Shown here piece by piece: positions 59,881-64,000 of a stretch of DNA of 64,000 bases. The translations under genes were made by a program, and so were the position numbers. The stretch comes from an uncultured Candidatus Saccharibacteria bacterium (GTDB taxonomy: Bacteria > Patescibacteriota > Minisyncoccia > Phycocordibacterales > Zambryskibacteraceae): positions 168,290-232,289 of the forward strand of contig CAZSOL010000001.1 in the NCBI GenBank assembly GCA_964608585.1, given 5' to 3'. The notes under the pieces were generated by a model. That model was not told where the DNA came from and searched no databases. It worked only from the letters and a program-made list of their open reading frames with translations. Position 1 is the first letter of the stretch, and the number at the start of each line of letters is the position of its first letter.

Positions 59881-60165
59881 TTACATCGGACGGCGGTTCA
59901 TGCCTGGAGCGCGAGGCTCTAGTGGACGAGCTACATTAACTGTAAGCTTGCGACCTTCGAAGTCCTGACCATTCCACATGTTGATAGCGGCGTTGGCCAT
60001 CTCCTCATTTTCCATCTCGACGAAACCGAATCCCTTTGAGCGACCAGTCATACGATCAATGATGATCGAAGCTGAGATAACTGCTCCTGCCTTTGAGAAG
60101 GCATCCTTAAGATCCTGTTCAGTCGAAGTGTAAGGAATACCTCCGACGTAAAGCTTTGTTGACAT
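59881..60165 (-). CDS. RRM-type RNA-binding protein (glycine-rich/cold-shock-type Rbp)
   Basis: RNP-2 LYVGGI and RNP-1 KGFGFVEM; 94 aa. Confidence 0.85.
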   Translation of the reverse strand: MSTKLYVGGIPYTSTEQDLKDAFSKAGAVISASIIIDRMTGRSKGFGFVEMENEEMANAAINMWNGQDFEGRKLTVNVARPLEPRAPGMNRRPM

Positions 60166-60267: not shown

Positions 60268-60296
60268 ATTATAGCACAATCCTATTCTTTTTGCAA
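60268..60296 (-). promoter_or_regulatory. strong sigma70-like promoter of the RRM gene (TTGCAA, 17-nt spacer, TGcTATAAT)
   Basis: Minus strand reads TTGCAA, a 17-nt spacer, then TATAAT preceded by TG (extended -10). Implies a ~95-nt 5' UTR before the ATG at 60165; the -35 overlaps the last codons of msrB. Confidence 0.45.
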
Positions 60297-60650
60297 GTCT
60301 AGGCAAATTGAGTTTATGCAGTAGCGCTTACCTGTATTTGTCGGACCATCATCAAAGACGTGCCCTAAGTGAGCCCCACACTTAGCACACTTAACCTCAG
60401 TCCTGTGCATGTTGTGAGAGTTGTCTTCTTCCAAGATGACGTTCTCTGTATTTGCTGAATTATCAAAGGAAGGCCATCCTGTACCAGAGTCAAACTTCGC
60501 TTCTGAGGAAAAGAGTTCAGACCCGCAATTCTTGCATACATACCTCCCCCTTTCTTTAGTATTCACAAACTCTCCAGAGAAGGGGGCTTCCGTCCCCTTC
60601 TCAAACATTACCTGCTTCTCTTCTTCTGTAAGTTTAGGGTTTTTTTGCAT
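60282..60650 (-). CDS. msrB: peptide-methionine (R)-S-oxide reductase MsrB
   Basis: Two CxxC zinc pairs and the catalytic CGAHLGHVFDDGP block. Confidence 0.9.
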   Translation of the reverse strand: MQKNPKLTEEEKQVMFEKGTEAPFSGEFVNTKERGRYVCKNCGSELFSSEAKFDSGTGWPSFDNSANTENVILEEDNSHNMHRTEVKCAKCGAHLGHVFDDGPTNTGKRYCINSICLDLQKE

Positions 60651-60654
60651 ATTT

Positions 60655-61581
60655 CTACTCCATATCTTCCTCCATCTTCTTGACCTTGCTATGAACTATA
60701 GCCTCTGCATCACGAAGATTTTGCTTCAACTTCTTCATTACTTCACTTTCTTCATCGGTTAAACTCCTTCTTTTTTTAGTCCGTTCAAGAACACGTATAC
60801 TATCCTCAACATCTTCTTGAAGCAGGTCAAAGGCTCTGTCTATAACTCGCTCAATATCTCTCAACTCATTTATAAACTTCTTATTCGTCAGTCTAACTTT
60901 GTGGAAGCCGTGCATAACCCCCAAAATAATCACAAGCGTCAGGACAAACAATGGAACCGCGATCGCCACGAAGGTTAGTATAGAAGAGCTAACCGGTCTA
61001 ACTATGGTTGTATCTATTATTGGAGTTTCTGGTTGAGTCTCAACTATAGGAGCAACAGTTGTGGGTGCGGTTGGTGCCCCCTCTTCAACCACAGGTGCTT
61101 CTACGAGAGAGTAGCTTGCCGGTGGAGTGGTGGTCAAAAGATCTGTACCGTTACCATCATTAGCAAGAACCGCTCCACTAGCAAAGGTTATCTCAGCATT
61201 ACCCGACTTCAAAACCCTAAAGGTGACAGATACAACAAGTCCTCCCTCACCTTGATAGCCAGGGTTGGGCACCACTCCTTCAAAACTAATTCGTCCAGCG
61301 TTGTTATTGATGAGTGGGTCCTGAACCCAAAGGGTTAAGATGGAGCCAGCTTTTGACACAGAAGTGGCTTGAAGCTTGTCACTCGGGAAACTTATTGCTC
61401 CAGAGACAGCATTTATCGCTTGTGGGCTTGATACTCTAACTCTTATAGAGAAGGTCTTACCAACACTATAAGAACCAACTTCTGGAGAAACAAAAAGGGA
61501 GGCCGCATTAGTTACAAACGGCGCAACAAAAAGTGAGAGTACAAGTGTTAACGAAAATATTTTCTTGAAAGAAGTGTACAT
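60655..61581 (-). CDS. membrane-anchored surface protein with N-terminal cohesin-like domain and cytoplasmic coiled-coil tail
   Basis: Signal peptide, a ~125-aa beta-sandwich with cohesin-like pattern (GSYSVGKTFSIRVRV...AGRISFEGVV...VTFRVLKSGNAEITF), a Pro/Thr linker, a TM helix and a charged coiled coil. Confidence 0.5.
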   Translation of the reverse strand: MYTSFKKIFSLTLVLSLFVAPFVTNAASLFVSPEVGSYSVGKTFSIRVRVSSPQAINAVSGAISFPSDKLQATSVSKAGSILTLWVQDPLINNNAGRISFEGVVPNPGYQGEGGLVVSVTFRVLKSGNAEITFASGAVLANDGNGTDLLTTTPPASYSLVEAPVVEEGAPTAPTTVAPIVETQPETPIIDTTIVRPVSSSILTFVAIAVPLFVLTLVIILGVMHGFHKVRLTNKKFINELRDIERVIDRAFDLLQEDVEDSIRVLERTKKRRSLTDEESEVMKKLKQNLRDAEAIVHSKVKKMEEDME

Positions 61582-62294
61582 ACTGCTAATACAATTATAG
61601 CAAGAATTGATAAAACATAGACCCTGTTGGGGAGAGCCTTACTTGAGACCACGTAATTACCTTCCATATCAACGGCTTTGACATAAACCTTTTTTATAAG
61701 GAGTTTATCTCCTATTTCATAAGGGCTTTGTGCTTCTTGCCATTCATTGTTGCTTGGTCTAAAGACAAGTGTCTCGGCGACCTCATATCTTGCTACTCCA
61801 CTCCCCTTATCTTGAGTAGCAAATGAGACAAACTTCTTACCAGCAAAGATGTCTGGGGAGCTACTAATGTATAGGTCAAACGACTCCGGAGCTATGAAAT
61901 CTTCCGAAACCTCCACACTCATCGCCTTAAGAGACGTCGGTACCTCTGTACCCTCACCGTCATTCCTAAGTGCAATTATTTTGCCGAAAGATATCTCGGA
62001 AGGAAGCACTCCTCCTTCTATGACAAAGAGCTCTCTCTTGCCGCTAAACCCGCCAGGGGTAATACCTGAGAAGCGAATAACTCCCGTTTCGGAGTCAAAG
62101 GTTGGGCTCTCTACCCAAATCAATACAGAAGAACCGCCTATAAGAATATCCCCTACATCACCACTCTCTACAAAGACTGACCCCTCAATGGCGTTTATAC
62201 TCTCTCCAAGGGTATCAACTTCGACAAGAACGTGCGTCGCCGAAACAAACATAGGGAGAGCAAACAAAATAGTTATAAGTAATTTCTTCATCAT
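61548..62294 (-). CDS. membrane-anchored surface protein with cohesin-like N-terminal domain
   Basis: Signal peptide, VEVDTLGESINAIEGSVFVESGDVGD...IRFSGITPGGFSG (cohesin-like), a second beta domain and a C-terminal TM anchor. ATGA overlap with the upstream gene. Confidence 0.45.
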   Translation of the reverse strand: MMKKLLITILFALPMFVSATHVLVEVDTLGESINAIEGSVFVESGDVGDILIGGSSVLIWVESPTFDSETGVIRFSGITPGGFSGKRELFVIEGGVLPSEISFGKIIALRNDGEGTEVPTSLKAMSVEVSEDFIAPESFDLYISSSPDIFAGKKFVSFATQDKGSGVARYEVAETLVFRPSNNEWQEAQSPYEIGDKLLIKKVYVKAVDMEGNYVVSSKALPNRVYVLSILAIIVLAVCTLLSRKYFR

Positions 62295-63598
62295 CCGGTC
62301 CAGTTAAAGGCTAGTATTGAGAAGTCCACAAGATCAACCTTACCATCTCCATTCAAGTCTACATTTAACGGAAGGTTGGACCTTTTATACCAATACGCTA
62401 CGACAGAGAAGTCTACTAGGTTAACCTTACAATCCTTGTTCACATCTCCTTTCCTGCTACAAGCTCCAAGCGTAGCTAAAACATTTTGCGTTCCCACCTT
62501 GAAGGCCACCGCTTGGCTAAACGAGCTTATCTCACCATCCTTAGCACTCTTAGACTTAGCAGTATGATCACCATACTCTACAAGTGAGGAGTCAAAGTTG
62601 TATAGGTAAGCTCCAGCTCCATCGGTGTTTATCTTAGCGAAGACAGGCTCATCGGAGTTAACTTGTATCGTCACCTCACTTTGGATAGCAGATTGACCAA
62701 AGATAGCTATGTTGTCCCCTCTTCTTACTTCCAACTTGTCCACAGCGATAGTTGGAGCCAAATAGACTCCACTCACATTTGTTACAGTCCCATTGGTTAC
62801 CCCTATGGGGAAGGTGAGTAAGCTTGATCTATTGCCTCTGCTATCCTCACTATATATAGAGAAGAAGTAGTTCCCCCCAGAGAGCCCACCGACATTAGCA
62901 CTGAAGTTGGCTGTTGCATCTGCTACAGTACTACCTACAACCTGAGCGTCCTTAAGTATTGTGACGACACTTCTGGGGTATGCTCTGCCAGAGAAGTTCA
63001 CCATAGCCGAGCCAAAAGAGTTACCCCCACTACTGCTTCCTCCCCCACCTCCACCTCCGCCTCCACCGCCACTTGGGGCTGATGTGGGTGTAGCACTAAC
63101 CTCAGTTGAAGTAGCCACGACATTCCCTTCTGCATCAAGGACTCTCACTACAAAGTAGTAAGGGGTCCCGGAAGTCAAGCCGGTCCTAGTAGAACTTGGA
63201 GTACTACCAACGTTCGTGTAAGAGTAACTACTCCCAGAAGTTGTGGACTGTCCGACCTCATAAGCTCCGACTGACCAACCCAAGACTCCATCAGCGGCTG
63301 TCCATGAGAGAGATACCTGACCACTCCCCGCTGTAGCTGATACAGCTGGCGTAGTAATGTATGGGAAGAAAAGAAATCCAGCAAAAACTTGGCTCAGGTT
63401 CCCCGCCGTGGTTGAGGTGCCAATACCTAACTCTGTTAAAGCACTACTAAGAGAATAGCTTGTGGAAGTAGAGTATCCTCCGGGCCCTATGGTCTGATCC
63501 AATATTTGAAAGTTAGTAGACGAAGAGTACTGAGCCAACGCCGGCCAAGCGAGGAAAACCAAACAAACCAAAATAATTTGTCTCAAAGGAAGCGCCAT
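62291..63598 (-). CDS. secreted FN3-domain protein with poly-Gly linker and C-terminal type I dockerin
   Basis: FN3 (VSLSWTAADG...GTPYYFVVRVLDAEGN), an 11-Gly linker, then two canonical dockerin Ca-binding segments DVNKDCKVNLVDFSVV and DLNGDGKVDLVDFSILA. Start set at MALPLRQIILVCLVFLAWPALA (signal); the track ORF begins 8 codons upstream. Confidence 0.65.
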   Translation of the reverse strand: MALPLRQIILVCLVFLAWPALAQYSSSTNFQILDQTIGPGGYSTSTSYSLSSALTELGIGTSTTAGNLSQVFAGFLFFPYITTPAVSATAGSGQVSLSWTAADGVLGWSVGAYEVGQSTTSGSSYSYTNVGSTPSSTRTGLTSGTPYYFVVRVLDAEGNVVATSTEVSATPTSAPSGGGGGGGGGGGSSSGGNSFGSAMVNFSGRAYPRSVVTILKDAQVVGSTVADATANFSANVGGLSGGNYFFSIYSEDSRGNRSSLLTFPIGVTNGTVTNVSGVYLAPTIAVDKLEVRRGDNIAIFGQSAIQSEVTIQVNSDEPVFAKINTDGAGAYLYNFDSSLVEYGDHTAKSKSAKDGEISSFSQAVAFKVGTQNVLATLGACSRKGDVNKDCKVNLVDFSVVAYWYKRSNLPLNVDLNGDGKVDLVDFSILAFNWTG

Positions 63599-64000
63599 GT
63601 TTGCATAATAGGCGCGAACCACTCACCAAAGCCCTTAAAGGTTGTTATCTCATAAAGATGCCCATTGTGGATAAACCAAACCTCTCTGGTCTCACCTAGA
63701 AAGTCGTCTTGACTGTTGAAGGTCACAGCAGGTATGCGCTTCTCCCCCAAAGTCGTTGGTCTTATGTTGTAACGAATGCCAGAAGGTATGTCTCGATAAA
63801 ACCTATCCTCAGTAATAACATCTTTGTCGTATGGCACAATAAATATCTGAAGACCTCTTAAGCTTTGCTCGTTCTCCTGCACGACCGTCACAGCTCCTCC
63901 TCCTTCATCATACTCGGTAATCTTGGCTTGGGGTGAGTGATAATAGGAGAAGCCGTAGCGCTCGTTCTCATACTTAATATAATCAGATGGAGGCTCTGTT
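63583..64000 (-). CDS. hypothetical protein, C-terminal part (gene starts beyond the right edge of the window)
   Basis: The frame is open from the window edge to the stop at 63583. The track ORF starts at an internal GTG, but upstream codons (..TEPPSDYIKYENERYGFSYYHSPQ..) continue without a stop. Confidence 0.4.
   Translation of the reverse strand, partial: TEPPSDYIKYENERYGFSYYHSPQAKITEYDEGGGAVTVVQENEQSLRGLQIFIVPYDKDVITEDRFYRDIPSGIRYNIRPTTLGEKRIPAVTFNSQDDFLGETREVWFIHNGHLYEITTFKGFGEWFAPIMQTWRFL

Follow-up and report, generated by a model that had tools for sequence, protein, structure and literature searches.

Cellulosomes have cohesin and dockerin modules as their hallmark. The described systems closest to the locus studied here are the cellulosomal type I anchoring pairs (C. 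thermocellum OlpA/OlpC-dockerin, PDB 3ul4 and 4dh2; the CipA Coh2-Xyn10B dockerin pair, 1ohz), which combine a C-terminal dockerin of duplicated Ca-loop/helix units with single-cohesin anchoring proteins held by SLH domains or sortase links. Non-cellulosomal modules, such as the Archaeoglobus fulgidus cohesin (PDB 2xdh) and the Clostridium perfringens toxin/glycosidase cohesins (2vo8, 2jh2 and 2w1n), are isolated, on enzymes or single proteins. Two further relevant systems are the CPR Pam pilus (PamA/B/C/D/E/T/R), described in Saccharimonadia and Microgenomatia without a single mention of cohesin or dockerin (bioRxiv 10.64898/2026.03.03.709456), and SEML1_0315 of the Saccharibacterium Southlakia epibionticum, a dockerin-domain envelope protein that is essential by Tn-seq (PMC10633639).

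At the right end of the window (the whole 64-kb stretch of DNA analysed) lie five co-directional minus-strand ORFs, overlapping or nearly so, at the very coordinates that a first-pass annotation had given. The organism belongs to the Patescibacteria/Parcubacteria type, which fits the impression that annotation had of a streamlined, possibly episymbiotic genome. We coined the names DocA, CohB and CohA in this analysis for the three central genes; the features are as follows:

63583..>64000, minus strand: upstream partial ORF (3' part of a gene), overlapping the DocA start; from translation
62291..63598, or to 63622 from an upstream GTG, minus strand: DocA, secreted, 435 aa; from ORF and Pfam
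63530..63598, minus strand: DocA signal peptide, MALPLRQIILVCLVFLAWPALA followed by Q, with a hydrophobic segment at aa 3-21
63359..63529, minus strand: DocA N-terminal module, aa 24-80, conserved in the family alignment
63095..63358, minus strand: DocA FN3-like domain, aa 81-168; Pfam fn3 and Ig_Rha78A_N, both sub-threshold
63014..63094, minus strand: DocA flexible linker (Pro/Ser, 11-Gly, Ser/Gly), aa 169-195
62474..63013, minus strand: DocA pair of Ig-like domains in tandem, aa 196-375; Big_6 matches the first
62294..62452, minus strand: DocA dockerin, aa 383-435; Pfam PF00404 above the gathering cutoff
61548..62294, minus strand: CohB, 248-aa type I membrane protein
60655..61581, minus strand: CohA, 308-aa bitopic membrane protein
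60282..60650, minus strand: msrB, methionine-R-sulfoxide reductase; SelR match

The stop codon of DocA overlaps the start of CohB (ATGA), and CohB overlaps CohA by 34 nt. All three proteins have signal-peptide-like N-termini and none has a catalytic or CBM domain by Pfam or NCBIfam; the window as a whole encodes one dockerin (that of DocA) and exactly two cohesin-like ORFs.

DocA is built, in order, of a signal peptide, an N-terminal module, an FN3-like domain, a Pro/Gly linker, two Ig-like domains of the Big_6 type and a C-terminal dockerin. Across the family alignment the signal peptide is kept in position and variable in sequence. The N-terminal module contains repeated S-x-N/S-Y/F-x-L strand-like motifs and ends in GFLYFP; it was sought in the neighbouring genes and not found there. 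The FN3 domain read by the first-pass annotation is borne out in relatives, which have precomputed PF00041/PF17936 matches (one is named 'Fibronectin type-III protein'), whereas the window protein itself falls below the Pfam fn3 threshold (16.1 vs 25 bits). The Gly run that it had counted is exactly 11 residues long (aa 177-187), and a Gly run is kept across the family. Big_6 matches with 23.9 bits at residues 210-270 (numbering of the 443-aa form), and PF17936 is present in many relatives; some 7 residues separate the end of an Ig-like domain from the dockerin, a spacing that would also suit an XDoc-like unit.

A dockerin was taken to consist of two tandem segments of ~22 residues, each with a 12-residue EF-hand-like loop (D/N at positions 1, 3, 5, 9 and 12) and a following helix. 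In DocA these are DVNKDCKVNLVD (aa 385-396) with the helix FSVVAYWYKR, and, after a 7-residue connector, DLNGDGKVDLVD (aa 414-425) with the helix FSILAFNWTG; the C-terminus comes 10 residues past loop 2. Both loops are exactly those quoted by the first-pass annotation, their Ca-ligand positions read D/N/D/(N or D)/D, and the two-loop pattern is kept across 120 DocA relatives. With Dockerin_1 (PF00404), whose gathering cutoff is 22.9 bits, DocA reaches 30.5 bits (aa 391-437, numbered on the 443-aa form) and the orthologue from the closest relative (L001) 32.6 bits; the label 'type I' is taken solely from the name of the Pfam model.

CohA consists of a signal peptide, a cohesin domain (aa 27-160), a Pro/Thr-rich linker (161-197), a TM helix (198-222) and a cytoplasmic region (223-308), the ~85 aa past the TM being predicted helix. 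CohB has a signal peptide, a cohesin-fold domain (aa 20-128), an FN3/OmpL47-like domain (135-221) and a C-terminal TM helix (224-244). Both are thus tethered to the membrane by TM helices rather than borne on a scaffoldin, a topology that had been correctly foreseen. The proposal that their N-terminal domains are cohesin-like holds at the level of family membership and predicted structure, which confirm a cohesin fold for both in the models, but not by direct HMM match, as a Pfam search of the window CohA and CohB returned no Cohesin match at E<=1. Among relatives, Pfam Cohesin (PF00963) is found at E<=0.01 in 11/26 CohA proteins (best 5e-7) and 6/42 CohB proteins (best 1e-7), and the NCBI name 'cohesin domain-containing protein' recurs. 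When the AF2 model of the CohA N-terminal domain (pLDDT >90) was compared with the PDB by Foldseek, the top 50 matches were all cohesins (best E 3.8e-10, target-normalised TM-score 0.7-0.78), many of them solved in complex with dockerins. The best structural matches of both CohA and CohB models are type I cohesins, those of the anchoring pairs above, and the predicted beta-sandwich superposes on solved cohesins, whose fold is a nine-stranded jelly-roll. The two domains are homologous to each other (hhalign 99.9%), and both families have invariant residues (INAxxG, W..EP, F.G..P.G and L.NDG.GT) on predicted strands 3, 5, 6 and 8. In solved type I complexes, e.g. 1OHZ, the 8-3-6-5 sheet is the dockerin-binding face of the cohesin. 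A sequence-based search of the PDB with the CohA family profile found no cohesin, which counts against a cohesin-dockerin explanation. Within CohA the cohesin domain is the most conserved part; that of CohB has no strand 1 in this lineage and shows low conservation (31%), and hence may not be a functional socket.

Of the 77 related loci whose downstream sequence is long enough, 74 have DocA, CohB and CohA in this order on one strand, and start and stop codons often overlap; the flanks vary from locus to locus. The conserved unit is therefore of three genes and not, as first annotated, a syntenic block of five; for these three, both the cohesin fold and the synteny on which that annotation had staked its reading were found. 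At least 528 species-representative genomes, mostly of the Parcubacteria/Paceibacteria type, encode a DocA relative; there are at least 1773 homologues, the best 120 of which are ~420-465 aa long with 48-62% identity. Of all modules in the triad the dockerin is the best conserved, with a mean pairwise identity of 66% across 77 genomes, an unusual constraint for a CPR surface protein. A mirror-tree/partial Mantel test detected no dockerin-cohesin co-variation beyond that of unrelated modules.

We consider it reasonably probable that the locus is a non-cellulosomal cohesin-dockerin module, widely conserved in Patescibacteria, in which docking of the dockerin on the cohesin(s) holds an Ig stalk to the membrane. 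All three proteins would be exported by Sec via their signal peptides, with CohA and CohB remaining in the cytoplasmic membrane by single TM helices and exposing their cohesin domains outside. The cohesin of CohA would sit on a ~37-residue Pro/Thr linker, coupled to the cytoplasmic helical tail, and that of CohB on an FN3-like pedestal beside the membrane. DocA would be released in soluble form and captured non-covalently and Ca2+-dependently; we infer that its C-terminal dockerin would engage one cohesin or both on the 8-3-6-5 sheet, with that of CohA, the better conserved of the two, as the putatively preferred partner. This would plant on the membrane, in an anchoring role, a stalk of about three Ig/FN3 domains and a flexible Gly linker, whose N-terminal module would point outward into or through the envelope and bind something else, e.g., a surface fibre, a pilus-like element, the surface layer or a host ligand. 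The presence of one dockerin against two cohesins at the locus counts, by stoichiometry, against a cohesin-dockerin explanation.

A literature search found no paper describing such a set in organisms of this kind, in agreement with the first-pass annotation. The logic is likely that of the cellulosomal pairs, in which a cohesin bound to the cell holds a secreted protein by its dockerin, but there are no enzymes, CBM or multi-cohesin scaffoldin here, anchoring is by TM helices within the cytoplasmic membrane, the conserved cytoplasmic helical tail of CohA is an addition, and the locus of this Patescibacterial host gives no sign of fibre degradation. Unlike the isolated non-cellulosomal modules, this is a dedicated, order-conserved three-gene operon, found in a large bacterial radiation, whose two cohesins are membrane-anchored paralogues and whose client is a non-enzymatic Ig stalk. 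SEML1_0315 resembles DocA by description, both being Patescibacterial, non-enzymatic, multi-Ig envelope proteins with a dockerin; however, it is 927 aa long and apparently monocistronic, with no cohesin genes adjoining.

The alternative that survives best, though we hold it to be unlikely, is that these are co-located envelope proteins that are not cognate: the cohesin folds would be generic beta-sandwiches binding glycan, wall material or each other, and the dockerin a Ca2+-binding stabiliser or the ligand of a different partner. The missing direct Pfam Cohesin match of the window CohA and CohB, the lack of specific co-variation and the truncated, diverged CohB domain all fit this alternative, and the 2009 survey by Peer et al. 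reportedly lists many non-cellulosomal cohesin- and dockerin-like modules without a demonstrated partner. It is nevertheless opposed by the near-invariant order of overlapping genes across divergent genomes with differing flanks, by closest structural matches that are bona fide dockerin-binding cohesins, by the invariant residues in the canonical binding sheet, and by the rank of the dockerin as the most conserved module.

A second alternative, improbable in our estimate, makes the cassette a chaperone-usher-like system or the Paceibacteria form of the CPR Pam pilus, with CohB as a PamC/PamD-like membrane-anchored chaperone and DocA as a PamT-like subunit joined by donor-strand exchange. Like Pam, the locus is a CPR-specific envelope system with Ig/FN3-like signal-peptide proteins and TM-anchored accessories, and there are tail-fibre-like genes in the vicinity, as pam loci have. 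CohB, with its two beta domains and C-terminal TM, superficially fits the description of PamC/PamD (bioRxiv 10.64898/2026.03.03.709456), and a donor strand could in principle fill its absent beta strand. The NCBIfam model of the pilus-tip protein PamT (NF058579) matches the N-terminal region of DocA weakly (23.2 bits in the window protein, far below the 240-bit equivalog cutoff; 4/18 relatives, best E 3.4e-9). No PamA/B-type pilins, PapD-like chaperones or matches to other Pam models were detected in the examined proteins, and the predicted fold of CohB is not PapD-like.

The suggestion of the first-pass annotation that msrB belongs functionally to the cassette, repairing oxidised methionines of the surface proteins, fares worse still and strikes us as very unlikely. 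MsrB is a normal SelR protein (PF01641, 166.5 bits), with CKNC, CAKC and RYCIN in its translation supplying the two CxxC Zn motifs and the C-terminal catalytic Cys. A gap of only 4 nt, in which no terminator was found in the window, separates it from CohA, with which it is probably co-transcribed there, and one relative (L002/L003) shares the arrangement. However, msrB does not follow CohA in the closest relative (L001), in L004-L007 or in any of the 80 loci of the species-representative scan, so that the repair idea lacks comparative support; moreover, MsrB has no signal peptide and is thus cytoplasmic, whereas its proposed substrates are extracytoplasmic. The upstream partial ORF, whose family (197 aa in relatives, an N-terminal TM plus a globular domain) has no Pfam or NCBIfam match, is weakly associated, occurring in 8/86 loci; both genes are lineage-specific neighbours outside the system.

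A miniature cellulosome-like complex degrading polysaccharide, for which the hallmark status of the modules would speak, we give scarcely any credence, as there is no GH, CE, PL or CBM domain in DocA or the examined neighbours, each anchor has a single cohesin and only one dockerin protein occurs in 64 kb. A cellulosome proper was likewise rejected: the locus has no multi-cohesin scaffoldin, dockerin enzymes or CBM, and the upstream genes of relatives no GH/CBM. CAZyme pipelines treat cohesin/dockerin modules as cellulosomal (PMC7038595), which was counted in favour of the miniature complex; inferring cellulolysis from counts of these domains will give such genomes a wrong label.

Returning to the tethering module, a bolder and quite tentative extension, which we think unlikely, is that DocA-CohB-CohA is a core envelope-anchoring device of Parcubacteria/Paceibacteria-type CPR. 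The cohesin-dockerin joint would replace sortase, SLH or lipid anchors in fixing a surface fibre or pilus-like element by its base to the cytoplasmic membrane, and the CohA tail would link the appendage to the inside of the cell, whether mechanically or by signalling. The PamT-like character of the DocA N-terminal module is a hint toward such an appendage.

Patescibacteria (CPR), ultra-small bacteria that account for a large part of bacterial diversity, presumably live in attachment to other cells, and very little of their surface machinery has been identified. This order-kept cassette, present in at least 528 species-representative genomes and with a dockerin so well conserved across lineages, is thus a specific candidate, open to test, for a core structure of the envelope or of attachment. 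If the tethering module is real, the cohesin-dockerin principle would reach from enzyme assembly to the membrane tethering of structural proteins; if the anchoring-device extension is also true, the cassette would be an attachment apparatus not described before, with relevance to episymbiosis.

Five co-directional minus-strand ORFs occupy the right end of the window (60282-64000), as the first-pass annotation had claimed. ORF translation gives the following layout, in which DocA, CohB and CohA are our names for a secreted dockerin protein and two membrane-anchored cohesin-domain proteins:

63583..>64000, minus strand: partial ORF, the 3' fragment of a gene running past the window edge
62291..63598, minus strand: DocA, 435 aa (443 aa if an upstream GTG at 63622 is the start)
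61548..62294, minus strand: CohB, 248 aa
60655..61581, minus strand: CohA, 308 aa
60282..60650, minus strand: msrB, 122 aa, whose product is an ordinary SelR protein (Pfam, 166 bits)

The gene junctions suggest a single transcript for the block because they are overlapping (ATGA between DocA and CohB; 34 nt between CohB and CohA) or separated by only 4 nt (CohA and msrB). A promoter and terminator consensus scan of the block returned counts not above shuffled expectation. A good sigma-70-like promoter match on the minus strand at 60268-60296 (TTGCAA, 17 nt, TATAAT, extended-10 TG) overlaps the msrB stop and lies upstream of a gene for an RRM-domain RNA-binding protein (59881-60165); therefore, the operon probably ends at msrB.

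The DocA family returned at least 1773 homologue matches, the best 120 of which are all about 420-465 aa long with 48-62% identity; among the source names is 'dockerin type I repeat-containing protein [Candidatus Paceibacterota / Patescibacteria]'. Screening a single genome for each GTDB species identified at least 528 DocA loci; among those listed, the named records belong to Parcubacteria, Kaiser-, Magasanik-, Vogel-, Nomura-, Buchanan-, Taylor- and Uhrbacteria and Paceibacterota. Some TPA_asm bins with the cassette are titled Gammaproteobacteria, Saccharibacteria or Planctomycetia, labels that we treated as unreliable; the 'uncultured Gammaproteobacteria' and 'Planctomycetia' titles (L019, L032, L041, L042, L044, L058, L061, L065, L066, L069, L071, L072, L075, L081 and L083) probably assign the bins to the wrong taxa.

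Searches with HMMs of the three families revealed that DocA is followed immediately by a CohB-family gene and then by a CohA-family gene on one strand in 74 of the 77 loci that retain 2.5 kb or more of sequence downstream of DocA. This conserved gene order is our strongest result. The flanks of the cassette vary by locus and include genes for ribonucleotide reductase, glycosyltransferases, Mur ligases and CTP synthase. Only the window and the related loci L002 and L003 have msrB next after CohA; the gene is absent from that position in the closest relative, L001 (CohA 83% identical), and from beside the cassette in all 80 species-representative loci. The family of the partial ORF is found at 8 of 86 loci. 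These two genes are incidental neighbours: the synteny proposed for a five-gene block holds for DocA-CohB-CohA and fails for the outer pair. The unit proper is a cohesin-dockerin cassette of three genes that extends across Patescibacteria. Many relatives have a longer CohA (480-650 aa) into which additional Ig (Big_13) domains are inserted, and at least 11 loci (L010, L022-L024, L026, L048, L060, L062, L064, L068 and L079) have a third cohesin-family gene of about 420-470 aa after CohA, about 1.9-2.8 kb downstream of DocA. The window has the minimal version, which lacks both elaborations, with a single dockerin and just two cohesin-like ORFs; no further dockerin or cohesin was found in the window beyond the cassette. 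The sole dockerin match outside a DocA ORF among the loci is in L044, whose DocA gene is divided between two ORFs.

All three proteins have signal peptides. DocA ends in a dockerin that scores above the Pfam Dockerin_1 cutoff (30.5 versus 22.9 bits), in line with the first-pass call, and the Ca loops and 11-Gly run quoted there are exact: loop 1 is DVNKDCKVNLVD (aa 385-396), loop 2 is DLNGDGKVDLVD (aa 414-425), and the glycines span aa 177-187. Both loops have D/N at positions 1, 3, 5, 9 and 12, and an amphipathic segment of 10 residues comes after each, the second such segment terminating the protein. The FN3 domain claimed for DocA is less secure, with fn3 (16.1 bits), like Big_6 (23.9 bits), falling under the Pfam cutoff in the window protein; both recur among its relatives as precomputed matches and source names. 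The dockerin is near-symmetric, with L-V at positions 10-11 of both loops, which would allow dual-mode binding; that one DocA dockerin might hold two cohesins is speculation. Position 6 of such a Ca loop is normally Gly. In loop 1 of DocA it is a Cys (aa 390), and this residue and a Cys just ahead of the dockerin (aa 380; window 62429-62461) recur jointly in about half of the relatives (C-x3-5-GD-x-N-x-D-C), a pairing that may form a disulfide clasp at the base of the dockerin.

The hydrophobic N-termini and TM segments of CohA and CohB lie where they had been placed from the sequence: CohB has a C-terminal TM (aa 224-244), and CohA has one at aa ~198-222 followed by predicted helices up to the C-terminus. 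The proposal of cohesin-like N-terminal domains finds no support in the window proteins themselves, which have no Pfam match, uninformative NCBIfam scans and nothing informative in phmmer searches against the PDB; a CohA family profile against PDB sequences likewise gave only coiled-coil noise. It is supported by their families, in which Pfam Cohesin is matched at E<=0.01 by 11 of 26 CohA and 6 of 42 CohB relatives, some of them labelled 'cohesin domain-containing protein' at NCBI. Further, the two N-terminal domains are mutually homologous (hhalign 99.9%, E 6.7e-35, 157 columns), and the AlphaFold2 model of the CohA domain (pLDDT >90) retrieved only cohesins among its best 50 Foldseek matches in the PDB (best E 3.8e-10; target-normalised TM-score 0.7-0.78), many of them from solved cohesin-dockerin complexes. 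The cohesin assignment thus rests on family matches, paralogy and predicted structure. Most members of the CohB family alignment have some 20 initial residues, which make up cohesin strand 1, that are missing from the window protein (window 62180-62237) and from its nearest relatives. In this lineage the domain begins at strand 2 straight after the signal peptide, and the sandwich may either be reduced in size or take up a strand supplied by a different protein. The tail of CohA (aa 223-308; window 60658-60915) is predicted to form two long cytoplasmic helices in which F251, E277 and E293 are near-invariant though overall identity is only 26-27%, a hint that the tail makes a conserved contact in the cytoplasm or oligomerises.

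Mean identity over 77 genomes is highest for the dockerin (66%), followed by the DocA Ig domains (55%), the CohA cohesin (46%) and the CohB cohesin (31%); among the parts of CohA, conservation of the cohesin far exceeds that of the linker, TM and tail. Invariant motifs common to both cohesin families (INAxxG, W..EP, F.G..P.G and L.NDG.GT) map to predicted strands 3, 5, 6 and 8, the strands that make up the dockerin-binding sheet in type I complexes of known structure, 1OHZ for example. These three patterns fit a protein-protein interface. Mirror-tree partial Mantel tests on module distance matrices from the same 77 genomes gave small correlations, those of dockerin-cohesin pairs being not above unrelated module pairs. 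From module conservation, motif placement and the domain content of the three proteins, we infer dockerin-cohesin binding within the cassette: DocA would be secreted and then captured in a Ca2+-dependent manner by the membrane-anchored cohesin(s). Its capture would set on the cytoplasmic membrane a stalk comprising some three Ig/FN3 domains and a flexible Gly linker, the distal end being the conserved N-terminal module of DocA. CohA would be the likelier main socket, with CohB perhaps providing a second site or acting as an accessory.

That distal module (aa 24-80; window 63359-63529) has three strand-like S-x-N/S-Y/F-x-L repeats and ends in GFLYFP. The recently described Pam pilus of CPR has a putative tip subunit, PamT (bioRxiv 10.64898/2026.03.03.709456), and a Pam-like pilus is a minor rival reading that serves as a lead for distal function and not as a classification. 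The NCBIfam PamT model scores 23 bits against the window DocA (cutoff 240 bits) and matches 4 of 18 relatives (best E 3.4e-9) but not the closest one; NCBIfam models detected no other Pam component, and a search of neighbouring genes found no further copy of the module. This weak but recurrent PamT similarity is the only lead on what the distal end may do. CohB as a chaperone like PamC/D was rejected, its fold not being PapD-like.

Returning to the membrane-tethered cassette, the closest mechanism is that of the cellulosomal single-cohesin anchors OlpA and OlpC, together with the non-cellulosomal cohesins of A. fulgidus (2xdh) and C. perfringens (2vo8/2jh2). Unlike those, the cassette has TM-helix anchors in the cytoplasmic membrane, one with a cytoplasmic helical tail, and combines two paralogous anchors, a non-enzymatic Ig-stalk client and an order-conserved dedicated operon in a CPR host. 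No catalytic or carbohydrate-binding domain was found in DocA, CohB or CohA, and a cellulosome reading was rejected, its defining features having been tested and not found. The essential dockerin-domain envelope protein SEML1_0315 of the Saccharibacterium Southlakia (PMC10633639) is a loose parallel; at 927 aa and with no adjoining cohesins, it was rejected as an orthologous system.

A ~130-aa single-TM protein with no Pfam match lies upstream of DocA on the same strand at 50 of 79 loci (directly adjacent in 41) and may belong to the system as a fourth component; in the window, where the 197-aa family of the partial ORF sits in that position, it was not detectable. Giant secreted proteins without a Pfam match (up to >3700 aa) are often encoded upstream in relatives, a giant protein being present on the same strand at 33 loci. 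Both partners are more frequent there than the partial ORF's family, and a Peptidase_S74 tail-fibre-like protein is found upstream in two loci examined (L001 and L005). L001 also encodes two paralogous secreted proteins of 379 and 481 aa with a common C-terminal tail (RRMVRLFEG... and RRVIRLFQG..., both ending QQ). Such upstream partner genes, if present here, would fall past the right edge of the window (>64000). Their positions in relatives are:

L004 5565-5957; L005 6580-6969; L066 5518-5925; and 47 other loci: ~130-aa TM protein
L001 116-4781; L005 1-5411; L006 1-6107; L004 1-3268: upstream regions with giant, tail-fibre-like or paralogous secreted genes

Full-text literature searches on cohesin and dockerin in CPR, Parcubacteria and Patescibacteria, covering a minority of subscription journals, yielded no description of the cassette; domain-level annotation is already in databases, and the system as such appears undescribed. 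The first-pass observation is confirmed and its interpretation partly supported. Rather than a new principle, the cassette is a candidate for CPR envelope or attachment architecture that is widespread, under strong constraint and amenable to experiment.
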